DNA of 64,000 nt. Source: Planctomycetota bacterium. GTDB lineage: Bacteria > Planctomycetota > Phycisphaerae > WQYP01. Where the stretch lies: positions 23,185 through 87,184 of the forward strand of contig JAKAVA010000055.1 of NCBI GenBank assembly GCA_021827645.1. The letters are read 5' to 3'. The position numbers were made by a program, and so were the translations under genes. This document shows, one piece after another, positions 27,011-48,918 of the stretch (its first letter is position 1; every line of letters begins with the position of its first letter). The notes beneath the pieces are model-generated. The model saw only the letters and a program-made list of their open reading frames with translations, did no database searches and was not told the origin of the DNA.

Positions 27011-29287
27011 ATGGGAAGCGATGTGAATAAGAAGCTTGACGCAGCAGCCCAAAAGACAGGCAAGGGATGGGCCACGCGGATCATCTGCCGCGCATGGGGC
27101 AGCGCAATTTTGGCGGCGCTCGCGGGTGCCTGCACGGCCGTGGTGATTTCGGAGGCCTTGCTGTGGCGATGGGTTGGCGCCGGGGGTGCATGGGGCGGGG
27201 TGCCATTCTTTGCGTGCCTCCTCTTTGCCATCGGTGCGTGGGCGGTGTTGGCGAGGTATGCCTTCGGCAAAGGCTCGGTGTCGCTACACTGGAAAAAACT
27301 TCCCCCGACCTGGGTGTTGATTGTTTTGGCGCCATTATTGTTCTGGGCCGCAAGTTGGCCCATCGGTCTGCCTCCAAGCTCCGAATCCAAGCATGTGCCC
27401 TGGGGCGTCTGGATCACCTTCACCCACGGCTGGGTTTGGCTTTGGGGTGCGATCATTGCCGCCGGCGTGGCCACCGCGTTTTGGCACGCCCTTCTGCCGC
27501 GCCTTCTTGCCCGCGCGAAGCCTGAGCAACCCGGCGAGGAACTCAAACCCCTGCCGGTGGAAGCGGGGCTGGCGCCGATCGAACGGCTGGTGGCGGCGCA
27601 GCCGAAACGGCCGGGCCCACCTCCACCCGATTACACCGACGGAGGGTTGCTGCGTTGGCTCACGGAGAACGACGGTCCCCTGGGCCCCCAAGAGAAGCCG
27701 CTCTTCGATTTGGGGCTTAAGCCCGAGCGGATTATTCAGTCATTACGGCCGCTGCACATTTTCAGCCCGGCTCGAACCCTGGCGCTGATCGGTGTGCGTG
27801 GCTCCGGAAAGTCCACTCTGCTCCGCCTGGCGGAGGGCTGTAGCGCCGCAAAAGAGGGCGTCACGCTTAAGTTCGCCTATATCTCGCTTTGGGAGTATGA
27901 ATCCGCTTCCGCCGCCATCCGGGCGGTAGCAGATGAGATTCTCGCTGTCGCCGCCGATCACATCGACACCACGCCATTTTCCAGTGCCGCCGGGGCTTTG
28001 ATGCGCACCGTTACCGGCAACGAACGCTACTGGAATATTGCCGCCGCGTTCGGCCTCCAGCCCCGTACCGACGAATTGCTCGGTGGGCTTTCGACGGCGT
28101 TGCTCCTCGCCCGATGCCGCGTGATCCTCTGCATCGAAGATGATGACCGCATCAGCGATGAGGGAAAGAAGCAATTTCGGCAGACCGTTACCGGTTGTCT
28201 CGATTACTTGCGCCGGTTCCCCGCTTTCGGCTACGTCATATGCGTGAGCAGCAAAGATTGGGGGAGCGTATTCGCCGCTGCATTGGATGTAATTGAGCCG
28301 CCGGAGGCGCGGGAAGCCCGCACTAAGGACGTCAGAGCCAAGATCGAGTCCGCTGAAAAGAACAGGGGCACGGGCGAGGGCGCTCAAGCCGCCGCGGACA
28401 TATGGACAGAAGAGATGGTCGACACCAGAAAGCTGCGCCGGGCGCGGGAGCGGGCGGTGGCCGACATTCTCGACGGCCTTGATACTACCCGCCTCTGCCG
28501 CGAGGAATTGGTGATCAAGCCGCTGGAGGCCAGCCAATGGCAGCCCGTCTTGGAAAGCGTCCGAAAAATGATGTTTGAACATGCGGGCGCTTCGGCGGAT
28601 AACGACTCCTTTGGGCTATCTGCCGACGACCGCAGAGTTGTTTGGGCGAAGTTTATCCAAGGCGCTTGCGGAGATACACTCCGAACGCAGTTGGGGAATC
28701 CTGCATCCGCCCCTTGGGAAAACACGCACGTGGGCTTCGCCTTTACCCCGCGCATCCTTCGATTGGGCTTGGGCGATGCGTGGCGGAAGTGGCGGGCGAT
28801 TGTGCCCATGCTCGGAAAGAGTACCGTCATCGATCCGGACAGTGTCCTCGTGGCGTGCCTGGTGCGGGCATGTCGGCCGGACGTCTGGAACGCCCTGATC
28901 CGCGACCCCAACGTGCCGAGCGGCGGTGAATGGCCGCCCACCAATTACGTCGTGCAATCGGCCCGCCGTCGGCGGGATGCGGAAATCCGATGGCAAGAAG
29001 GGCTCGCACGTGCGGCGGGGCCGCGCTACCATAATTCTCCGATACCGCACCTCGACCTCCAACCAGCAATAAAAAACCTCATGCTGAAGCAGCACGACAG
29101 GCCCCACCCGGAATCGAGACAACCGGACCCGGAGGCGGGCGAACCGCAGGACGGCGGCGAAGCCGCCGATCGGAAAACAACGCTAACTTGCATGGAGCCG
29201 CCTACCATCACCCGCCCCGGCGGCCTGATCGGCAACATTGGTGGACTCGACCCCGGCTACAACTGGCGCTTATTCCTCAACGCCTGA
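27011..29287 (+). CDS. KAP-family-like P-loop NTPase with N-terminal multi-TM domain
   Basis: Five or six predicted TM helices in the first ~170 aa, then Walker A (IGVRGSGKSTLL) and a KAP-style Walker B hhhhDDxDR (VILCIEDDDRIS). No other recognisable domain. Gene sits ~170 bp downstream of tRNA-Leu. Confidence 0.45.
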   Translation: MGSDVNKKLDAAAQKTGKGWATRIICRAWGSAILAALAGACTAVVISEALLWRWVGAGGAWGGVPFFACLLFAIGAWAVLARYAFGKGSVSLHWKKLPPTWVLIVLAPLLFWAASWPIGLPPSSESKHVPWGVWITFTHGWVWLWGAIIAAGVATAFWHALLPRLLARAKPEQPGEELKPLPVEAGLAPIERLVAAQPKRPGPPPPDYTDGGLLRWLTENDGPLGPQEKPLFDLGLKPERIIQSLRPLHIFSPARTLALIGVRGSGKSTLLRLAEGCSAAKEGVTLKFAYISLWEYESASAAIRAVADEILAVAADHIDTTPFSSAAGALMRTVTGNERYWNIAAAFGLQPRTDELLGGLSTALLLARCRVILCIEDDDRISDEGKKQFRQTVTGCLDYLRRFPAFGYVICVSSKDWGSVFAAALDVIEPPEAREARTKDVRAKIESAEKNRGTGEGAQAAADIWTEEMVDTRKLRRARERAVADILDGLDTTRLCREELVIKPLEASQWQPVLESVRKMMFEHAGASADNDSFGLSADDRRVVWAKFIQGACGDTLRTQLGNPASAPWENTHVGFAFTPRILRLGLGDAWRKWRAIVPMLGKSTVIDPDSVLVACLVRACRPDVWNALIRDPNVPSGGEWPPTNYVVQSARRRRDAEIRWQEGLARAAGPRYHNSPIPHLDLQPAIKNLMLKQHDRPHPESRQPDPEAGEPQDGGEAADRKTTLTCMEPPTITRPGGLIGNIGGLDPGYNWRLFLNA

Positions 29288-39824: not shown

Positions 39825-41702
39825 TCACTCCCGAATTTTTGCCCGGTAATAAAACCGGAATGGAGGGGCGCAGTCACCGTTGAGATAAAAATCAGTCCAC
39901 TTTCCGTTCTGCCTGATGTTATCCGCCCATTTGAAGTTGATATCCGCAGGCATGGAACCTTTGATACCCAATACGGATCGTGGAATCGCCATTTGCATTT
40001 GATTGCCCTTGACACGGATACGAGCCTTTCCTGCGGATGTCCACAGGTATTTGCCGTCGATATTTTTCTCAATGGTTGACGCACGATCGTTGAGAACCTG
40101 CCGGTCAACCACATAGTTAAAACCCATCCATTGACTGCTGCCGGAGTGAGGAATGTGTAAAAACAGAAGCATCCAGGATTTATCCCGCCAGGATGTCAGG
40201 GGTTTGTGGGTTTTCACCCAGAGATAGATATTGGATGAATCGTATGTAAATTTGCTTGCCACGATGTCATTGCGACCAGTATTGTTGATATAGTGTGCAT
40301 TCCCCCAGCCGGGTGAATTGCGGTGTACCGCCAGGCCCACATTATTGATAAACAGAGGGCCGATTCTATTCCATTGAGAAAATGGGCCGCGGATATGAAT
40401 CACCGCAGGATGGACGCAAGGCAGGCGATGGACGCCCTTATAGCGACGTATATTGGCGACCATCTGATAATAATAGTTATCGCCGAACCCCCCATAAAGA
40501 CCCCCTTTATCCTCCTTCATAGGTTCGATATCCCGGCTGAATTCAGGGCTATATTCATCTACAAAAACGGGTTGGCCCTTGGAGACCCAGCGGCCTGCAA
40601 AATAGTTTTTACTCGATGCACGCCTGCAACCGCAGGTCCACTCATTCCAGCCTGTAATAAAAATGAAGGCGGGATCAACACGGAGAGCGTGCTGCCACTG
40701 TTCCGCGAAACAGATACCGCGTCCGGGATGCTGCCGACTTGGAGTGGGTTCAATACCGTTGGACGAACTTCGCCCAGTGCTTCCGGTGGCCCAGCCAGCG
40801 GCGGCCACCGGCATTTCTTCTGGAGTATGCGGGTTGATATGCCAACCGAAGAGCCAGTTGAATTTGTGCGCAGTCGCAGCTTTCCGGGGCGTGTTATTCC
40901 AACTCCACCTATTCTTCCCCCCGGTATGTTCCCAGCAATATCGCAGGGTAAACAAATGCCGGATGGCGGCGGGTAATTTATGAATATTGCCGTAAATGAG
41001 CATCAGCGGCTTGCCATCCCAATAAAACCACAGTTTTTTGGCCAATCCGGTCTTATAAATATTTTGGTAGTCTGCGGTCCATGCGCCGTTGCCCCCATGA
41101 AAGATGAAATGACCTGCACTGCGTACCGCGCCCCTGCCTGCGAAACATACAAAATCCGGTACGGTATTGCCCAACGCCTTCATATGTAGCCATGTCTTAA
41201 ATAGCTTTTGATCTACCCTGAAAAAAGTCACTCCATAGGTGTTATCTAATATGATCGAATTAATACCCGCATCGCCGAGCATAACGGCGTGCTCACGCAA
41301 TACAAATGGATCCGAATCGATGTAGAAACCGAATAATGGCTCGCCCCACCAATGAGGGGAATAGAGCGGTCCCAGGACCGCGTTGGGGGTCTTTTCAAGG
41401 ATAGCCGCATTGTTCCATATGCGTTGACCTGGCCGATTACTATGCGTGAAATAGAATATTCCCACCGTTCTATCAGGTTTGGGTGGTCCTACCTGCCGGT
41501 AATCCGGTAGCACACGTCCGAGCCCATCGACGGCTCCCCATGTATCGGGTCCGGCGACGGGAATGACGGTGTGGCGATGACCAGAATGCCATGGAGCGGC
41601 ACATGACGCATCAGTTAGACATAGCCCCGTAAAAAGGATGATAATCCCAGTCACGACCGGTCTTGAAAGTCGATGAAGGGCTGAACCAAAGTTAAATCTC
41701 AT
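39825..41702 (-). CDS. Secreted hypothetical protein, probable carbohydrate-active enzyme (unassigned family)
   Basis: Signal peptide. Contains an ITGWNEW...DEYSPEFSRDIEP segment reminiscent of the catalytic NEW motif of GH99/GH71-like TIM-barrel hydrolases. No confident family call. It lies in the rhamnosidase/sulfatase cluster. Confidence 0.3.
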   Translation of the reverse strand: MRFNFGSALHRLSRPVVTGIIILFTGLCLTDASCAAPWHSGHRHTVIPVAGPDTWGAVDGLGRVLPDYRQVGPPKPDRTVGIFYFTHSNRPGQRIWNNAAILEKTPNAVLGPLYSPHWWGEPLFGFYIDSDPFVLREHAVMLGDAGINSIILDNTYGVTFFRVDQKLFKTWLHMKALGNTVPDFVCFAGRGAVRSAGHFIFHGGNGAWTADYQNIYKTGLAKKLWFYWDGKPLMLIYGNIHKLPAAIRHLFTLRYCWEHTGGKNRWSWNNTPRKAATAHKFNWLFGWHINPHTPEEMPVAAAGWATGSTGRSSSNGIEPTPSRQHPGRGICFAEQWQHALRVDPAFIFITGWNEWTCGCRRASSKNYFAGRWVSKGQPVFVDEYSPEFSRDIEPMKEDKGGLYGGFGDNYYYQMVANIRRYKGVHRLPCVHPAVIHIRGPFSQWNRIGPLFINNVGLAVHRNSPGWGNAHYINNTGRNDIVASKFTYDSSNIYLWVKTHKPLTSWRDKSWMLLFLHIPHSGSSQWMGFNYVVDRQVLNDRASTIEKNIDGKYLWTSAGKARIRVKGNQMQMAIPRSVLGIKGSMPADINFKWADNIRQNGKWTDFYLNGDCAPPFRFYYRAKIRE

Positions 41703-42129
41703 TCTTCTCGGCCCCGGTTCATAAAAAAGAGTAGGAATGTTCTAGTAATCGGTTCAAACCTTTCGAGCCATAAAATTTACATAAGAATCTGACATTGATT
41801 CTCATTATATTCAAATCTCGATAAAACAGACAATTGTATTTCCCAAATAAAGTATCTTGTGATTGATTCCGGAAATAGCGGCGTGCTCCCGCCGATGAGA
41901 ACTGGCTACTGTGAACCAGAGAGGCAAAAAGAACTGCGAGTCAAGCACCTTGGCCTCTTAAAAGTGGCCCCATCATGCTCAGGCTTGGTAATATCCTTTG
42001 GCGAAAGAAGTTGCGGCTAACGCCCCCGCACCATACACTCATTAAAGCTTAATAAGACAGGGCGCGGCCGGCGGCGCTATCAGCCGTCACATACACCAAC
42101 GGGCAAAATGGCGAGGATAAAGAATCACC

Positions 42130-43080
42130 ATGGCCAGAAAACCCTACAGCAAGATGCGATCGCAGTTGTGGAAATTCATCGAGATTAACCGCCAGTTGCG
42201 AGAACAAAAACGCACCGGGCGCCCATGCACAAAAGAAACCTTGCTTAAAGGACTCCGTTACGATGTCAACGAGCGAACCCTTCGCCGCACGCTTGAATTA
42301 ATGCGCGACGAACTCGGTGCTCCGATCGTCTACGACCGATTGCTGCAAACGTACAAATTGCAACATGACGATTGGCGTATGCCGAATATTTCCCTGGATG
42401 AGGCTGAACTGCAGGTGTTGGCGACCGCCATCCAAGCCGTCAGACCGGTTTTGCCCAAACCAATGTCCGAGCGTCTCGATAAGTTGCTGGCGAAATTGCT
42501 GGATGCCTTACCGCTTAGCCGTTGCGACGCCGTCCGACGGGCTCAAGGGCAGATTGAATTCGTTCCGGCCCCGATTCTATCCAAAGGTATGGAGTGGTTG
42601 GAACCGCTTTACCTGGCGATTCTTGATCGATATTCGGTGGATATGGTCTACCATGTGCCGAGCCGGGATGAGAATACCCGTCGCCGCTTTGATCCCTACT
42701 ACCTGCGCAACGTCCAAAGCATCTGGTATGTCGTCGGTTATGACCATTTCACCAGACATTGGCCGATCTTCAAACTGGCGCGGATTCGAGAATTAACGGT
42801 TTCTGAAGACTTATATACCGTCAAACCCTTCAGCGCCGCGAAATATTTCAAAAACAGTTTGGGCATTATGGTCGGCGGCAAGCCGCAGCACGTGCGTATC
42901 CGATTGACCGGCTATGCGGCGAGCACCGCGGAGGAGTATGTGTGGCCGGATGGCTTCACGTGCCGGCGCAACGGCCCCGGTGAGGTGATTCTTTCCGGTC
43001 AGATTGTTCATATGGCAGAGTTGCTGCAATGGACAGTGGCGTTTCAGGGGGATGCGGAAATCCTGCCGGAAGAGAAATAA
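42130..43080 (+). CDS. WYL-domain transcriptional regulator (N-terminal wHTH, WYL, C-terminal WCX-like region), BrxR/CapW-like
   Basis: N-terminal HTH (SKMRSQLWKFIEINRQLREQKRTGRPCTKETLLKGLRYDVNERTLRRTLELMRDELGAPI), central WYL-type beta region (RRRFDPYYLRNVQSIWYVVGYDHFTRHWPIFKLARIRELTV), C-terminal extension. ~316 aa, the typical size. Preceded by a ~430-bp AT-rich intergenic region. Confidence 0.75.
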   Translation: MARKPYSKMRSQLWKFIEINRQLREQKRTGRPCTKETLLKGLRYDVNERTLRRTLELMRDELGAPIVYDRLLQTYKLQHDDWRMPNISLDEAELQVLATAIQAVRPVLPKPMSERLDKLLAKLLDALPLSRCDAVRRAQGQIEFVPAPILSKGMEWLEPLYLAILDRYSVDMVYHVPSRDENTRRRFDPYYLRNVQSIWYVVGYDHFTRHWPIFKLARIRELTVSEDLYTVKPFSAAKYFKNSLGIMVGGKPQHVRIRLTGYAASTAEEYVWPDGFTCRRNGPGEVILSGQIVHMAELLQWTVAFQGDAEILPEEK

Positions 43081-43270
43081 TCTACCATCGACCCTCCGTT
43101 GCCCCTTTGCCCATGTTTATGCAAAGGTCAAAGGTCGAAGAGCCGTGGCCGGCCAAACCCGTAGGACAACATCTGTCCGTGGCATGTGGTATGACATATG
43201 CGTTAACTATTTGGCGTAGCCGGAGGCTTTCCCTCCCGTAATTGGCCTGCATGCGGAAAGGAGCTTAATC

Positions 43271-45601
43271 ATGAATGACCAGACCCAATCCACGGTCGCC
43301 GCACATCAATTCCCCTCTGTCGTCATCTGCAGTGAAGACGCCGCACCCTCCATGAGCTTTACCCAAGTTCGCGAAAACCCTTACCTCTGCGTCAAAACGC
43401 TCAAGTTTTTAGAGACATTTCTGCAGTCGGAAAAAGGCATCTTGGAAGATAATGACTTTTTTCATTTTATAGTTCACATCCTCGGCAAGCACAACACCCT
43501 TGATATGGGACGGCAATATTGTTCATTTGATGGGCTGCGCAGCATCACCAAAAGCATGCTGGAGGAATCAAATGAAGACGTAGCATCTCATGTGCTCGCG
43601 GATCTCTGGAGCCATCCCCGCACTCATGCGGCCATTAAGAAGGCCCTCCTTGCCGCCCTGGCCGAACAGAGTGAACATTGGAACAGGATCGCGGCAGAAA
43701 CAAAGGATCAAGACGTCATACGACATCGCTTCGAAGAGTTGTCGCGTCTCCTCGGGCTTACGGATGTCGAATTGGATATGCTGCTCCTCGCCTATGTCCG
43801 CTACGCGGATATCTGGGACTGGTGCTCCCTTGGGCGCACGCGCCCCGTCCGCAGGGCGTTTCAGCGAATTTGCGTCATCGCACGAATTCTCAGCCTTCCG
43901 CAGGCGGTGGCCGCAAAATATCTCCTGGAAAACGCCAAGCTCCGTTCGCTCGGGTGTCTTGATTCCGACCTTGACTTCCGATCTGAATTGGAGCCTTTCC
44001 TGATCGGCCTCTCAGAGGATCCGCTGGCGTCGAAATATTTTGTCCGCTGCAACGAGCCAGCCCTGCCGTGGTCGATGCACGGCACCCTTGCCGATCAGCA
44101 CGGCGAATGGCTCAAACGGCTCATTTGCAACCGTGATCCGAATCGCGGATTGAATATTCTGCTTTACGGCGTCCCCGGTACCGGCAAAACATCCTTTGCT
44201 CTCTCGCTGGCTGCCGAACTTGGCTATGAAATGTATCGTATTCGCGGGGCGGAGGAATTTGACAGCGATCCGATCAACTTCTGGCCCCGCTTCGCCGCGC
44301 TGCGTATCTGCGATGGTCAGGCGAATCGTGACCGCAGCCTGATCCTGATTGATGAGGCCGATGATATGCTTGATAGCGCCGGGGTCCCGTTGGGGGAGGT
44401 TAGCGCAGGTGTGACTGACGGGCGAACCGACAAAAAAGAAACACTTAATATCATCTTGGATCAACTCAGGACGCCGTGTATCTGGATCACCAACAATCAA
44501 CCGCATCATCTGGCGTCCTCGTCGCGCCGCCGGTTTGATTACTCCATTGAATTTACGCCCCTCCCGCAGCAGAAACGTCAACAAGTGTGGAAAAATCTGC
44601 GTCTGCGGTATGGACTGGCGGAAGTCATCAATGACGAAATGGTTGAGAGCCTTGCGCGACGATTCTCCATCAGCGCCGGTGGAATCGATCTGGCACTTCG
44701 CAATTTCGGCCGATTGGCACACGATCCGGCAGTTGCGGCCACCGCCATGGAATCCCTTGAGCACTTACTTCGACCGCATTGCGAACTAATGGGTATTGAC
44801 CTCGATGGCGATGCACCAACATCGATAGAATATTACTCGCTTTCCGGCCTCAATATCCGTGGACCGATTGGGCCGCAGCGTCTCTTGCAGGCAGCACGAG
44901 AGTTCCATCTGCGGCACGAGCATCGGGGGCCAACTGATAGGCGTATTCCCGGTTGTGCGCATCTGGCGGTGCTTCTCTCCGGGCCGCCGGGAACAGGCAA
45001 AACCGAATTCGTTAAATTTCTCTCCCGCGACTTGGATTGTGCTGTCCGCACCATCATGCCCGGCGATCTGCTGAGCCGATATGTCGGCGGTACGGAGCAG
45101 AACATCCGGCGGGTATTTCGAGCCGCTGCGGCTGATAAAGCCATTCTCTTTCTCGATGAAGCCGATGGCCTGTTTCGATCCCGTTCCCTTTCAGACCGAA
45201 GCTGGGAAGTGACGCAGGTTAACGAATTGCTGTCTGCCATGGATCAATTTGCAGGCATACTGGTTTGTGCTACCAATTCAGTCCAAATGCTCGATGCCGC
45301 GACCATTCGCCGCTTCACCTTTAAGCTGGAATTTGATTATCTGGATGCGGCCGGAAAGAGGGAATTTTATCAGCGCTTGCTGGTGGAACTGTGCCAGGAG
45401 CCATTGGATGGCAATCAGCAGCGCCGCCTGAATCAGATTGCCGATCTGGCGCCCGGCGATTTTTACACCGTGCGACAGGCGATGTCCTATCTGGGCGAGG
45501 GTCACAACTTCACTCACGACGATCTGCTCGCTGCTTTGGAAGCAGAAAGTCGTGCCAAACGCTTCGGCAAATCGGGCAATTTCGGTTTCGGACGGGGGTG
45601 A
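43271..45601 (+). CDS. Tandem AAA+ ATPase with ~290-aa N-terminal domain of unknown function
   Basis: Two classical AAA modules. Module 1: Walker A GVPGTGKTS, Walker B LILIDEADDM, sensor ITNN, Arg finger SSRRRFDYSIEF. Module 2: Walker A GPPGTGKTE, Walker B ILFLDEADGLF, sensor ATNS, ATIRRFTFKLEF. The RRF-type second region of homology resembles Vps4/spastin-clade AAA. The N-terminal domain is not recognisable. Confidence 0.75.
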   Translation: MNDQTQSTVAAHQFPSVVICSEDAAPSMSFTQVRENPYLCVKTLKFLETFLQSEKGILEDNDFFHFIVHILGKHNTLDMGRQYCSFDGLRSITKSMLEESNEDVASHVLADLWSHPRTHAAIKKALLAALAEQSEHWNRIAAETKDQDVIRHRFEELSRLLGLTDVELDMLLLAYVRYADIWDWCSLGRTRPVRRAFQRICVIARILSLPQAVAAKYLLENAKLRSLGCLDSDLDFRSELEPFLIGLSEDPLASKYFVRCNEPALPWSMHGTLADQHGEWLKRLICNRDPNRGLNILLYGVPGTGKTSFALSLAAELGYEMYRIRGAEEFDSDPINFWPRFAALRICDGQANRDRSLILIDEADDMLDSAGVPLGEVSAGVTDGRTDKKETLNIILDQLRTPCIWITNNQPHHLASSSRRRFDYSIEFTPLPQQKRQQVWKNLRLRYGLAEVINDEMVESLARRFSISAGGIDLALRNFGRLAHDPAVAATAMESLEHLLRPHCELMGIDLDGDAPTSIEYYSLSGLNIRGPIGPQRLLQAAREFHLRHEHRGPTDRRIPGCAHLAVLLSGPPGTGKTEFVKFLSRDLDCAVRTIMPGDLLSRYVGGTEQNIRRVFRAAAADKAILFLDEADGLFRSRSLSDRSWEVTQVNELLSAMDQFAGILVCATNSVQMLDAATIRRFTFKLEFDYLDAAGKREFYQRLLVELCQEPLDGNQQRRLNQIADLAPGDFYTVRQAMSYLGEGHNFTHDDLLAALEAESRAKRFGKSGNFGFGRG

Positions 45602-46177
45602 ATGGTGAATTTTATAGCTATTGATTTTGAAACCGCCAACCGATCTGACGAAAGCATCTGTGCCGCAGGTATGGCGATATTTACCCATGGTAGGCTTTTG
45701 GACGTGCGGCATTGGCTGATCCGACCGCCAAGGGGTTTTGATCGGTTCCGTTCGGATTGGACGGAAAGCCTCCATGGCATCGGGCACGCCGATGTGCAGA
45801 ACTCACCCTATTTCCCGGGTATCGCTGAACTATTATTTCCTCAGCTGGCCTCGGCCGATGTGGTCATTGCGCATAACGCCGCTTTCGATCTGCGAAAACT
45901 TCTGGCTACAGCCCGATGTTTCAACTTGGTCGTTCCACAGTTTGATTGCTTGTGCACGCTGGCACTGGCTCGCCGGGTTTGGCCTGATTTAGAAGGTCAT
46001 TCTCTCGACGTGCTCTGCGCCCACATCGGCCATCGGGGCCATCATCATCATGCCGGTGCAGATGCCGAGGCCGCGGGGCGTTTACTACTGGCGATGATGG
46101 CCACTACCAACACCGCGACGCCGCGTGCCTTGGCCAAAAAGCTCGGAATCCAGCCGCGCCCCGTGCCGGGCCGGTAA
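45602..46177 (+). CDS. DEDDh 3'-5' exonuclease (DnaQ/RNase T-like)
   Basis: Exo I (IAIDFETAN), Exo II (VVIAHNAAFDLRKL), Exo III with a His-rich run (HRGHHHHAGADAEAAG). Start ATG overlaps the stop of the AAA+ gene (TGAATG), suggesting translational coupling. Confidence 0.75.
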   Translation: MVNFIAIDFETANRSDESICAAGMAIFTHGRLLDVRHWLIRPPRGFDRFRSDWTESLHGIGHADVQNSPYFPGIAELLFPQLASADVVIAHNAAFDLRKLLATARCFNLVVPQFDCLCTLALARRVWPDLEGHSLDVLCAHIGHRGHHHHAGADAEAAGRLLLAMMATTNTATPRALAKKLGIQPRPVPGR

Positions 46178-46658
46178 TCGGCTGGGCGTGCCCATTGCCC
46201 ATTTTCTGCATAAAGCCGCGACCGGCGGCCGAACCGCTTTGTTTTCTGGCGTGGCCCCACCATTTGCCGGCCACGCTGCGTGTTGGCTGGGCCACGGATG
46301 GTGAACGCGGCCTTCTGCGCGATCACACTTCCGTCATCTCCGGGCAGGTAAAACGCATAGGACAATATCTGTCCGCATCATCGGGTAACTTTATCCGTGT
46401 TGAGCGTCCGGGCCGGCCGGGCGGATGGCATTTTAATGGAAGGGGAAATCATGAAGCCGTTGCTTGAAACCACACCGGCGCTGCTGGGCATGTCCGTATC
46501 AGGGGCGGTGGCCTGCGCGGGCAGCCCCGCCGATTATTATCCTTACCACGCACGGGAATGAGATTATTATTGACGAGTGATAGCCGCCGGTACCGGCCAG
46601 GTACCACGGATGTTTTGGTTGTTTTGTGGTTCGAATTCGCTAATAAGGGGGTATTATC

Positions 46659-47783
46659 ATGGCCAACATGGATGATCGTTACTTTGACTACTACGGCAAG
46701 TTGGTCGAGGCGTTTGTCCGCGACGTTGAGTCGCTGCAGCATCCGGACGTCGACAAGATGCCTTATCCGCATCTGCCGCTATTCGGGGGTGGCTATGAAC
46801 AGTCCGCCCTCAAACTGGTGATAGTTGGACAGGATACGAAGGGATGGGGCGACCTGAAAAAGTACCTGGCGGACGCCAAGGGCGACCCCGGCGCCGCACT
46901 CCGGTCTGATCTGGAGGAGTTCCGCCGGCATGAGTTCACCAAATGGGGATCGCACCGCCACACCTTCTGGGGTTTCGCCATTATGGCGCTTGCGGCGATC
47001 CATGGCCAGCCCAATTGGGGGGTGATGAAAAATGGTGGCCTGAAGGAAGTCTTGGATAGCTTCGCGTGGGCCGAGGCCAACGCGGTCGAGCTTTTTAAGG
47101 GGGAATGGAAGGGTGTGCCGCGTGATTACTGGGAGAAGGTGCAGGCCGCCGGGAAACGTTTCGACGGTATCCACCATCTGGTCGAGGTGCTCAAACCCAA
47201 TGTGGTCATCGTTTTGTATTGGGGGCTCAAGAAAGAAGACTACTTCCATGGCTACGATCGCGAGGACGTGAGCCAGAACGGTCGATTTACGCACTTCAGG
47301 CTGCCGACAGCTAAACTCGACGTCCTGCATATGCCGCATCCAAGGAGCATGGGCCCTAGAGAAAAGGCGGATTTCTTCTGCAAGGCGGCCAAATCCCTTA
47401 TGGACGACCTTGGTTTCGCGAAGAACTTTCCGGAGTTCGTGAACGGTACCCAGGAGGCTGCCCAAACCGTCGAGTTTCTGACCAAAAACGCTCCGGAAAT
47501 CTCTGGTGAGTTTGACAAATACGCGCTGGTCGCTTGGATTGCCACGGAGCTTGCCAAGCGCCAGGCGTTTATGTCGGTGCCTACACTCGCAAGCATTATT
47601 AACGCGAAGGGGGGACGCACCAACGGCGGCGAACGCTTCTCCGGCGGCCGCGGCACCTACCGGCTCGTCAGTGGTTCCTACCAACGCTACGATAAACAGG
47701 GCAAGGGCAAAATTGCGGAATCCATAGCGGAGGCCTTTCGTAGGCCAAATTTCGATTACGCCTACCCCCGTGGAGCAAGCTGA
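46659..47783 (+). CDS. Hypothetical protein with motifs resembling the uracil-DNA glycosylase superfamily
   Basis: LKLVIVGQDTKGW resembles UDG motif A (GQDPY, water-activating Asp). NVVIVLYWGLKK ... LDVLHMPHPRS resembles the LLWG strand and HPSPLS motif B of family-1 UDG, with similar spacing. Weak, memory-based similarity. Own AT-rich upstream region. Confidence 0.3.
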   Translation: MANMDDRYFDYYGKLVEAFVRDVESLQHPDVDKMPYPHLPLFGGGYEQSALKLVIVGQDTKGWGDLKKYLADAKGDPGAALRSDLEEFRRHEFTKWGSHRHTFWGFAIMALAAIHGQPNWGVMKNGGLKEVLDSFAWAEANAVELFKGEWKGVPRDYWEKVQAAGKRFDGIHHLVEVLKPNVVIVLYWGLKKEDYFHGYDREDVSQNGRFTHFRLPTAKLDVLHMPHPRSMGPREKADFFCKAAKSLMDDLGFAKNFPEFVNGTQEAAQTVEFLTKNAPEISGEFDKYALVAWIATELAKRQAFMSVPTLASIINAKGGRTNGGERFSGGRGTYRLVSGSYQRYDKQGKGKIAESIAEAFRRPNFDYAYPRGAS

Positions 47784-48042
47784 GCCACGCCCGGTTTATC
47801 GGCCACCCTGTTGGGCCGGTGCTCACCGCTTCGCGTTACCGTCTGCGATTCAATCCTGCCAAGATGGCACGGCCGGTGGCCGTGCCATCCTTTTCCCCGC
47901 GGCGCTTGGCCGGGCGGCCTCAACACTTCCGGCACCGACTGCGCACCACGCCGCCCGCCCCCAACGCCAACGGTCTATATGCTTTCCGGGAAAAATGCTA
48001 AGATGCTCCGAACCGCGATGGCGGTTTGTGAAGGGGTGATAT

Positions 48043-48918
48043 TTGCCGGGCCGACCATTGCACGATTTCCATATCGACGCACCGATAGCCGTCTACGATT
48101 CCGGTCTTGGAGGGCTCACCGTTGTGCGGGCGATCCAGCGCCTTCTTCCCGGCGAATCGATCGCTTATTTCGGCGATACGGCCCGCGTTCCCTACGGAAA
48201 CAAATCCGCTCGCACCGTCGCACAATTTGCATCCCAATGTCTGCGGTTCCTGACGCGGCTGAATCCGAAGATTATCGTAGTGGCGTGTAATACCGTAAGT
48301 GCGACCGCGATGCCCGAACTGCTGGCAGAATTCAGTACCCCGATCATCGGCGTGCTGGAACCCGGCGCCGCGGCCGCCATTCGCATCACCCGGCAGAAGA
48401 TTCCCCACGGGAAGTGTGCGGTGGGGTTAATAGCCACTGAGGCGACGGTAGCAAGCCGGGCCTATCAGATGGCCATCAGTCGGCTGGATGATGGCGTGCA
48501 CGTTGCGGCTCGCGCCTGCCCGCTGCTGGTGCCGCTGATTGAGGAAGGGCGGGAGGCGGATTCGCCGTTGGTGAAATTGGTACTTGATGAATATCTCGAT
48601 CCGCTGCGGCAGATTGCCCCGGCAGCGCTGATTCTCGGTTGTACGCATTACCCGATCTTGGCCGATGCGGTTGCGGCGGCAGTGAGTCCCGATACGATTC
48701 TGATCGATTCAGCCGGTGAAACGGCCGCGGTGGTGCGAAAGCAATTGGAATCCATGGGTTTGCTGCGAAGCGGCACCGTGGCCAGGCTTTCCTGCTACGT
48801 GACCGATCAGGGGCAGCGATTCGAAACCATTGCATCAAGATTTCTGGGCCGGCCGGTCGGCCAGCCGGTTTGGGTTGATCCGGAAAGTATTGAAACGCTC
48901 ACAACGGAAAACAGATGA
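48043..48918 (+). CDS. murI: Glutamate racemase
   Basis: IAVYDSGLGGLTVV, catalytic Cys motifs IIVVACNTVSA and LILGCTHYPIL. Confidence 0.85.
   Translation: MPGRPLHDFHIDAPIAVYDSGLGGLTVVRAIQRLLPGESIAYFGDTARVPYGNKSARTVAQFASQCLRFLTRLNPKIIVVACNTVSATAMPELLAEFSTPIIGVLEPGAAAAIRITRQKIPHGKCAVGLIATEATVASRAYQMAISRLDDGVHVAARACPLLVPLIEEGREADSPLVKLVLDEYLDPLRQIAPAALILGCTHYPILADAVAAAVSPDTILIDSAGETAAVVRKQLESMGLLRSGTVARLSCYVTDQGQRFETIASRFLGRPVGQPVWVDPESIETLTTENR

Follow-up and report, generated by a model that had tools for sequence, protein, structure and literature searches.

The described systems closest to the locus examined here, in which a winged helix-turn-helix (wHTH)-WYL-WCX regulator precedes a tandem AAA+ ATPase and a DEDDh 3'-5' exonuclease in a 64-kb stretch of Planctomycetota DNA (64,000 nucleotides of contig JAKAVA010000055.1, the whole of which is called the window), are regulators that respond to single-stranded DNA (ssDNA). 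PafBC of Actinobacteria, known for 'sigma adaptation', is a heterodimer or a fusion protein that recognises a non-palindromic half-site and controls about 150 genes; its promoters, tGTCgg(N10)tA(N3)T, carry a -26 element in place of the -35 element (PMC8635444). DriD of Caulobacter crescentus and DdaA of Moraxellaceae are homodimeric, ssDNA-activated factors with genome-wide regulons; the DriD box, ATACGAC(N7)GTCGTAT (for instance ACGACAGTAACTGTCGT), overlaps the -35 position of promoters devoid of a -35 element (PMC13004042), the DdaA box is CGWCA-N5-TGWCG (PMC12392091), and SiwR depends on a -26 GGA element (PMC10693628). Neither DriD nor PafBC is autoregulated (PMC13004042, PMC8635444). BrxR and CapW, which have the wHTH-WYL-WCX architecture and are placed directly 5' of the genes that they control, are repressors of BREX and CBASS; two reports (PMC11662680, PMC10853764) describe all characterised wHTH-WYL-WCX factors, CapW included, as binding ssDNA.

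What is described here is a putative ssDNA-responsive WYL regulon in new phyla with a new core target, and not a demonstrated defence system. With a confidence a little above even, the locus is interpreted as a local regulon whose wHTH-WYL-WCX regulator senses ssDNA and acts in the manner of the PafBC, DriD and DdaA activators. An earlier sequence-only reading had recognised three open reading frames (ORFs), whose coordinates, strand and lengths are confirmed, as are the WYL, AAA and exonuclease domains (Table 1), and had proposed a BrxR/CapW-type regulator in front of a coupled AAA+/exonuclease system; these two proposals are not sustained by the results given below.

Operator, promoter and regulator

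The regulon is recognised by a palindromic operator of 15 bp, GGACA-N5-TGTCC, which forms the core of the 17-nt motif TAGGACAAnATCTGTCC and occurs exactly twice in the window against 0.03 copies expected, once 5' of the AAA+/exonuclease bicistron and once 5' of a 374-aa UDG-fold gene; the surroundings of operator 2 are 76% identical to the operator-1 region over 45 nt. The module does not end with the exonuclease at 46177, where it was first delimited, since the second operator and the co-regulated gene extend it to 47783. In 273 kb of clade loci, 36 perfect palindromes are found against 0.35 expected by shuffling; all point the same way with respect to the gene that follows, and TA stands at exactly +11 after the palindrome in 32 of the 36, the cassette consensus being cGGACAAyAwCTGTCCGc-N8-gGTAnnnT. 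Perfect copies compared with the called genes of five loci are all intergenic and lie 72-139 nt 5' of a gene start, with one at 365 nt. Equivalents of operator 1 are present 5' of the AAA+ gene in the related loci L001, L002 and L005 and in at least 12 further ones, and the cassette precedes this gene in loci of Planctomycetota, Verrucomicrobiota and Victivallales.

On manual reading, operator 1 shows no -35 hexamer at 16-18 nt spacing from its -10-like hexamer, and in the cassette this interval is occupied by the AT-rich centre of the palindrome, with nothing resembling TTGACA. The format TGTCCG-N10-TAnnnT, found in 32/36 cassettes, is consistent with an operator lying over the -35/-26 region of promoters that possess only a -10 element, the absence of a -35 element being judged by eye. 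The spacing of the PafBC promoter is matched exactly and its sequence almost exactly, and the palindrome has the core and spacing of the DriD (CGACA-N5-TGTCG) and DdaA (CGWCA-N5-TGWCG) sites, with which it also shares the position over the -35 region and the presence of several separately promoted targets.

Two types of cassette can be distinguished. In type A, TG-n-TAAnnn precedes a conserved leader, TATCC(g/a)nnTTGAA, and the genes driven are those of a membrane protein and the AAA+ ATPase (L008:1326, L011:9286, L015:9577, L020:2670); the window copy at 46360, 5' of the UDG-fold gene, is also of type A and has the same leader, which could be a second regulatory element. Type B, GGGTAGCATGAAAT or GGGTAATATGAA, drives the phosphatase/exonuclease unit (L013:3048, L015:12390, L017:12356).

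Of the three domains attributed to the regulator, WYL is clear (Pfam PF13280, 1.9e-15, 57 bits against a cutoff of 21.8), whereas WCX remains below its cutoff (18.5 bits against 23.9), with profile alignments to PafB and DriD running through approximately positions 320-325, and no Pfam HTH model matches; the PADLOC WYL model spans aa 44-312. In the family W199 and R218 are invariant and Y200 is conserved in at least 90% of the members. A putative recognition helix, ERTLRR, with invariant T50 and R53, carries R49-x3-R53, which by motif matching is the pattern of PafB R46/R50 and DriD R37/R41 that reads the GxC core. A covariation of helix position 52 with operator position 1 (Arg with G here, Glu with C in DriD) was also considered and is weakened by the Victivallales regulators, which have Gln with the same G.

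A single-sequence search against solved structures returns PafBC entries only, and a profile of 12 regulators ranks PafBC first (1e-25), followed by PafB (6e-13), BrxR (9e-10), PafC, CapW (5e-7) and DriD (7e-7). PafBC and PafB align from the linker through WCX and DriD from the linker to the C-terminus, whereas for BrxR and CapW the alignment is limited to the WYL domain; with the PafBC/DriD geometry of the promoters, this speaks against a BrxR/CapW-type regulator. The putative wHTH-WYL-WCX architecture would be that of DriD and DdaA; the sequence similarity to DriD is remote (7e-7). PafBC, the closest solved relative, differs in being a heterodimer or fusion with a large set of targets and a half-site, whereas here one gene encodes the regulator, the palindrome is complete and the regulon is small and local. 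As is the case for PafBC, which has ssDNA as ligand and is not autoregulated, no operator is found at the regulator's own promoter, as the region 41703-42129 contains no palindrome with up to two mismatches. This region had been described as 430 bp long and AT-rich; its length is 427 bp, and it is only moderately AT-rich, with 45.7% GC against 55.2% in the window. That the regulator can act in trans is implied by two clade loci in which the cassette and the AAA+ gene are present but the WYL gene is not next to them.

The PafBC-like promoter geometry, the DriD/DdaA-like core and the PafBC-nearest profile make it most likely that the regulator is an activator switched on by ssDNA and that its regulon is local and rich in nucleases, activation being appreciably more probable than repression. 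In the proposed mechanism, the regulator would be made constitutively, and ssDNA accumulating from DNA damage, or from the replication or degradation of invading DNA, would bind the WYL domain and free the winged-helix domains. These would then bind GGACA-N5-TGTCC, at -26 to -40 of promoters with a -10 and without a -35 element, and RNA polymerase would be recruited to the two promoters of the window, that of the AAA+/exonuclease bicistron and that of the UDG-fold gene. The predicted products are a hexameric AAA+ machine that would unfold or extract a protein substrate, possibly DNA-bound, together with a 3'-5' exonuclease and a probable DNA glycosylase.

Several observations weigh against this explanation. 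The likeness to solved WYL factors is remote throughout, with the HTH region left unaligned by HMMER, and another regulator, for example LexA, is conceivable as the one that uses the palindrome. The AAA+-type cassettes, operator 1 included, carry a TGn extended -10, which would make constitutive activity possible and fit repression by occlusion. In Victivallales loci the palindrome is also located 5' of the WYL gene, with another spacing, which suggests autoregulation there. Finally, no recA, uvr, ssb or recJ-type repair gene is found under the cassette among about 50 driven units of the fetched loci and four metagenome matches, a sample in which only these four matches are unbiased and which does not consist of whole genomes; such repair genes do belong to the PafBC, DdaA and DriD regulons. 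The DriD and DdaA regulons extend over the genome, whereas the one described here is local and island-like.

Conservation and products of the regulon

The conservation counts refer to loci with enough flanking sequence to be judged. Where the AAA+ protein has at least 44% identity to that of the window (mostly Planctomycetota), the cassette is present in 14/14 loci, a WYL gene is nearby in 9/11 and an exonuclease lies downstream in 13/17, so that WYL regulator, tandem AAA+ ATPase and DEDDh exonuclease represent, in partial support of the earlier reading, a conserved arrangement in Planctomycetota; below 44% identity (other lineages of the PVC superphylum) the corresponding counts are 6/49, 3/41 and 2/44. 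The arrangement is kept from 87% down to 45% AAA+ identity and the link between operator and AAA+ gene across phyla; the link of regulator, operator and AAA+ gene is old, since distant loci that keep the WYL gene (a Verrucomicrobia metagenome-assembled genome, MAG, and several Victivallales MAGs) also keep the palindrome 5' of the AAA+ gene. In L001, whose AAA+ protein is 87% identical, the module occupies the same chromosomal site, from the rhamnose-utilisation genes (sulfatase, RhaT and rhamnosidases) on one side to murI, HEAT and nuo genes on the other, which does not support the accessory stretch that had been assumed. Several AAA+ copies are present in one MAG in JAJYFE01 (L008/L011, 83% AAA+ identity), UBA7640 (L039/L041, 79%) and CAYMSF01 (L040, L044 and L062, with L040/L044 96% identical); they could represent true paralogy or strain mixtures in the bins.

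The AAA+ ATPase is the most conserved target of the island. It comprises a helical, winged-helix-like N-domain (aa 1-290) and two classical AAA modules, D1 (approximately aa 290-450) and D2 (approximately aa 560-700), both with a Walker A of the form GxxGxGK[T/S] and a DE Walker B; in 24 homologues Walker A, Walker B, sensor-1 Asn and the RR arginine fingers of both modules are invariant or nearly so. D2 keeps a YVG pore loop and D1 has no canonical one. The best solved relatives are the ATPase cores of Cdc48, VAT, AFG2 and p97 (about 1e-26), with which the protein has in common the two classical modules, the Walker motifs, the arginine fingers of the SRH region and the aromatic-hydrophobic-Gly pore loop of D2; the similarity is restricted to these cores, the N-domain being helical and winged-helix-like instead of a double-psi barrel, and the gene differs from those of the Cdc48/p97 group in standing under a putative ssDNA-responsive promoter. 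From the classical-clade pore loop we infer a protein substrate for the AAA+ ATPase, which, to judge from the winged-helix N-domain, may be encountered on DNA.

The family is conserved over its full length. The protein database contains more than 460 members, and a search of 185,579 species genomes gives 259 genomic stretches, of which nearly all belong to Planctomycetota, Lentisphaerota/Victivallales, Kiritimatiellia and Verrucomicrobiota; the published DriD and DdaA regulons have no counterpart of it. No named family fits, in agreement with the initial impression that the genes belong to no named system: in PADLOC and NCBIfam the best match is IetA (IetA/IteA), over D2 only (PADLOC 2.4e-37; NCBIfam 112 bits against 510). 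Membership of IetAS was considered and rejected (NF042959, 111.9 bits, D2 only, and no protease gene in the locus), as IetA is a protein of about 370 aa with a single AAA module and the subtilase IetS as partner, whereas the window protein has another N-domain, a second AAA module and no IetS. A phage or prophage origin of the module was likewise discarded, as IMG/VR contains only one distant full-length AAA+ relative and the module itself is not viral. This relative (L093:5626-7875, IMGVR_UViG_3300050151_000071, on a 76-kb contig) has 749 aa, 29% identity from aa 144 to the C-terminus and a degenerate D1 Walker A, and its neighbours are a CCA-adding enzyme, a NAD synthase, a 2OG-Fe oxygenase and DUF488; the PHROG family phrog_10401 matches the window protein at 2e-62.

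The exonuclease belongs to the RNase_T family (4.9e-12). All 16 of 16 relatives keep D8, E10, H91, D96 and H149; by reading of the sequence, the H-x4-D motif is completed by D154, and the equivalog scores for the DNA polymerase III epsilon subunit are not reached (TIGR01406, 48 bits against 222.7; PRK06195, 129 bits against 373). More than 500 proteins make up its subfamily (about 188 aa, 50-59% identical), which in long contigs is present without AAA+, WYL gene or cassette, typically beside PDDEXK_4 and near SNF2, PIN and TIR genes. Since exonucleases of this kind are common in the absence of the AAA+ gene, and the majority of distant AAA+ homologues have no exonuclease, the two do not form an obligate two-gene system. 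The coupled two-component system initially envisaged is not supported, given the separate cassettes, the exonucleases without AAA+ and the pairing of only 2/44 distant homologues; the exonuclease is indeed a stand-alone gene, one of the outcomes that the earlier reading had named as refuting it, while the pair is not found in a housekeeping context. In the window, stop and start codons, thought to overlap in TGAATG, abut (TGA at 45599-45601, ATG at 45602-45604). The recurring pair of a small DEDDh exonuclease and PDDEXK_4 (L116:8001-9417, L117:8001-9693, L006:3887-5613, L090:3637-5373), whose surroundings include SNF2, PIN and TIR-pentapeptide genes, may form a two-nuclease module in its own right.

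The product of the second operator has a UDG-superfamily alpha/beta fold with inserted helices and a C-terminal helical extension of about 120 aa, features that distinguish it from families 1, 4 and 5, MUG/TDG and UdgX; no match is found in Pfam (UDG models included), PADLOC, NCBIfam or PHROGs. In its family, for which 59 homologues were found, a GQDT motif (G57-Q58-D59-T60, with G57, D59 and T60 invariant) and an HP motif (H227 and P228 invariant) occupy the places of the catalytic Asp and His of family-1 UDG, in motif A (the water-activating loop) and motif B (the His-Pro loop), and the protein is a probable DNA glycosylase. By comparison with L001, operator 2 and this gene lie on an insertion of 1.65 kb, flanked by a 12-nt imperfect direct repeat (GACCGGCGGCCG / GGCCGGTGGCCG); the right boundary was set by eye, the BLAST homology to L001 resuming only at 47955, and no recombinase gene is found near the insertion. 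Elsewhere the family seems to move as one gene on its own, without a cassette, and is found beside UvrD- and SbcCD-like genes among other places; it may represent a stand-alone defence or anti-modification glycosylase. A 55%-identical copy stands behind a degenerate cassette in the L002 island, and in L087 and L089 no cassette travels with the gene: at L087:7001-8155, and in L088, it interrupts a [NiFe]-hydrogenase operon midway, and in Cerasicoccus fimbriatus (L089:7001-8113) it directly follows a type I restriction-modification (R-M) system, with ParE and SNF2 genes as neighbours.

Most relatives have one cassette for the AAA+ gene, which often serves an upstream membrane-anchored protein of about 178 aa as well, and a separate one for the exonuclease unit, approximately 2.4-2.8 kb past the AAA+ start, where the gene preceding the exonuclease encodes a CX5R Cys-phosphatase (about 150 aa), a zinc-ribbon/TM2 membrane protein or a PD-(D/E)XK_3 nuclease. 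The direct TGA/ATG fusion, seen in the window and its close relative L001, is thus the exception and is probably derived. Further cassettes of the same loci drive a UDG-superfamily gene, a gene with a Mrr_cat restriction-endonuclease domain, an ankyrin/FtsK-alpha protein, more phosphatases and a 168-aa gene followed by two GmrSD genes. A scan of metagenome contigs for the cassette pattern, independent of AAA+, gives four matches, all of the same island type, with phosphatase and RNase_T, a 900-aa AAA+ homologue, and Mrr_cat, NERD and an HTH gene. The nucleases, Cys-phosphatases and small membrane proteins driven by the cassette in relatives suggest a stress-induced, nuclease-rich accessory island; the DriD regulon (exonuclease, endonuclease, small membrane protein) resembles the DEDDh exonuclease, PDDEXK_3, Mrr_cat, UDG and TM2 components of the module. 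The Cys-phosphatase, with an HCxxGxSRS (CX5R) loop and only weak DSPc matches, accompanies the AAA+ gene in Planctomycetota and Lentisphaerota (L013:3103-3585, L015:12434-12928, L090:3153-3599, L115:1269-1706 on the minus strand, and also L035, L037, L061 and L079); from phylum to phylum it stays with the AAA+ gene more constantly than the exonuclease does, and it is absent from the window.

Alternative explanations

A BrxR/CapW-type WYL repressor that silences a two-gene anti-phage system, made up of an AAA+ remodeller and a processive exonuclease that would jointly attack the nucleic acid of the invader, until infection is a rather unlikely alternative. The WYL gene does lie immediately 5' of the AAA+ gene on the same strand, CapW-type repressors too sense ssDNA (PMC11662680), and the extended -10 of the AAA+-type cassettes would allow constitutive promoters in need of repression; the regulator is nevertheless nearer to PafBC than to BrxR or CapW by profile, and neither a -35 element nor an operator at its own promoter is seen. 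The abutting codons of the window and L001 are compatible with translational coupling, against which stand the separate promotion of the exonuclease unit in most relatives, with other genes between it and the AAA+ gene, its large subfamily occurring without AAA+, WYL or cassette, and the 42/44 distant AAA+ homologues without a downstream exonuclease. The setting recalls a defence island in several relatives (GmrSD, Mrr_cat, PD-(D/E)XK, PIN/MazE, NERD, SIR2 and a recombinase in the neighbourhoods), and two diverged module copies per MAG point the same way; here, however, no known defence system lies downstream, PADLOC gives no full-length match, only domain-level ones (IetA over D2, a DEDDh model and PDC-S48), and the pore loop argues for a protein and not a nucleic acid substrate. 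A sigma-54 activator and SIR2 were considered as partners of the distant Lentisphaeria AAA+ copies and look like ordinary neighbours.

An equally low probability is assigned to an SOS-independent repair regulon with no role in immunity, in which the p97/Cdc48-like AAA+ ATPase would strip stalled or cross-linked proteins and the exonuclease, the UDG-fold enzyme and, in relatives, the Cys-phosphatase would clean DNA ends or lesions. Regulator and promoter are of the type of PafBC, DriD, DdaA and SiwR, all DNA-damage activators; the products are repair-like (3'-5' exonuclease, UDG fold with Asp/His motifs, CX5R phosphatase) and the AAA+ protein has winged-helix N-domains. The chromosomal site is stable between the window and its 87%-identical relative and the AAA+ family is virtually absent from viral contigs, but its distribution over species genomes is patchy and nearly confined to the PVC superphylum, with two module copies per MAG. 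A variable gene content also disagrees with it, with type IV restriction-like genes (Mrr_cat, GmrSD), PIN/MazE and NERD inside or beside the regulon, as do the absence of the cassette at recA, uvr or ssb in the sample described above and the UDG-fold gene as a mobile single gene in R-M, ParE and SNF2 contexts. DdaA drives, besides repair genes, R-M and CRISPR defence genes, so that the defence and repair readings may not exclude each other; sequence does not decide between defence and DNA-damage response, and a defence role is plausible.

Improbable, and more so than the two preceding explanations, is a specific form of AAA+ function, in which an ssDNA-induced p97-like segregase would dock on DNA via its winged-helix N-domains and remove DNA-bound proteins, with phosphatase, exonuclease and glycosylase finishing the process. 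Candidate targets would be host proteins that are trapped or cross-linked, poisoned topoisomerases for example, or phage proteins essential for replication, and the CX5R phosphatase could act on phosphotyrosyl adducts.

Chance adjacency without any functional unit, the palindrome being a repeat element of no regulatory meaning, would agree with the occurrence of the three families in other contexts and is very improbable, given a palindrome enriched about 100-fold, intergenic where checked, oriented and phased to a -10 element, and an arrangement kept from 87% to 45% AAA+ identity with an operator/AAA+ link across phyla.

Layout of the locus and significance

The features of the locus are collected in Table 1. 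The 36-codon ORF is probably not a gene, being unlike the small ORF at the matching place in L002 and L004, and as to structured RNA in the leaders, no Rfam family reaches its gathering score in 41600-48100.

Table 1. Position of the genes, operators and other features of the regulon in the window.
Feature	Position	Strand	Remarks
Intergenic region 5' of WYL gene, 427 bp	41703-42129		45.7% GC; no operator copy inside
wHTH-WYL-WCX transcription factor, 316 aa	42130-43080	+	Pfam WYL, PADLOC WYL model, profile
Operator 1, palindrome GGACAACATCTGTCC	43164-43178	+	92 nt 5' of AAA+ start codon
-10-like hexamer TATGAC	43190-43195	+	11 nt past operator 1; preceded by TGG (extended -10-like)
Tandem classical-clade AAA+ ATPase, 776 aa	43271-45601	+	Two PF00004 stretches
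DEDDh (RNase_T family) 3'-5' exonuclease, 191 aa	45602-46177	+	Start abuts AAA+ stop codon
Insertion, 1,651 bp, relative to syntenic L001	46232-47882		Carries operator 2 and UDG-fold gene
Operator 2, palindrome GGACAATATCTGTCC	46360-46374	+	5' of 374-aa UDG-fold gene
-10-like hexamer TAACTT	46386-46391	+	11 nt past operator 2
36-codon ORF between operator 2 and UDG-fold gene	46451-46561	+	Probably leader sequence, not gene
UDG-fold gene, 374 aa	46659-47783	+	Rare family without Pfam domain

Divergently from the WYL gene, a 625-aa ORF (39825-41702, minus strand) encodes a protein with no Pfam domain and a signal-like hydrophobic N-terminus; it is kept at the same position in L001, there too without a Pfam match, and probably belongs to the glycan-utilisation cluster. 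The KAP NTPase cited as part of the genomic context presumably corresponds to a 758-aa ORF (27011-29287, plus strand) that gives only a sub-threshold AAA_16 P-loop match and does not adjoin the module, from which it is separated by 13 kb with rhamnosidase genes in between. Between 52000 and 57000, a positive AT skew of 0.20-0.29, far above the rest of the window, covers a minus-strand nuo/Mrp-like operon and is probably a codon or membrane-protein composition effect.

No literature on this gene combination was found. To our knowledge, the WYL activators studied so far are all from Actinobacteria and Proteobacteria, and no WYL regulon has been described in the PVC phyla. The WYL activators responding to ssDNA (PafBC, DriD, DdaA and SiwR) are emerging as an alternative to LexA/SOS that links DNA damage and immunity, and what is probably the same logic, with a DriD-type palindrome and the exact -26/-10 spacing of PafBC, is now seen in Planctomycetota, Verrucomicrobiota and Lentisphaerota, where the main target is an uncharacterised tandem AAA+ family and the regulon has also gained a new family of UDG-fold proteins. 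As a simple and specific tag, the cassette could serve to list inducible genes in poorly studied phyla. If the AAA+ ATPase acts on DNA-bound proteins, it would represent a new type of stress- or infection-induced protein remodeller in bacteria; as a segregase, it would in addition imply a new bacterial route of DNA-protein crosslink repair or a new immune mechanism, and the PVC superphylum would have its first described regulon of a WYL activator.

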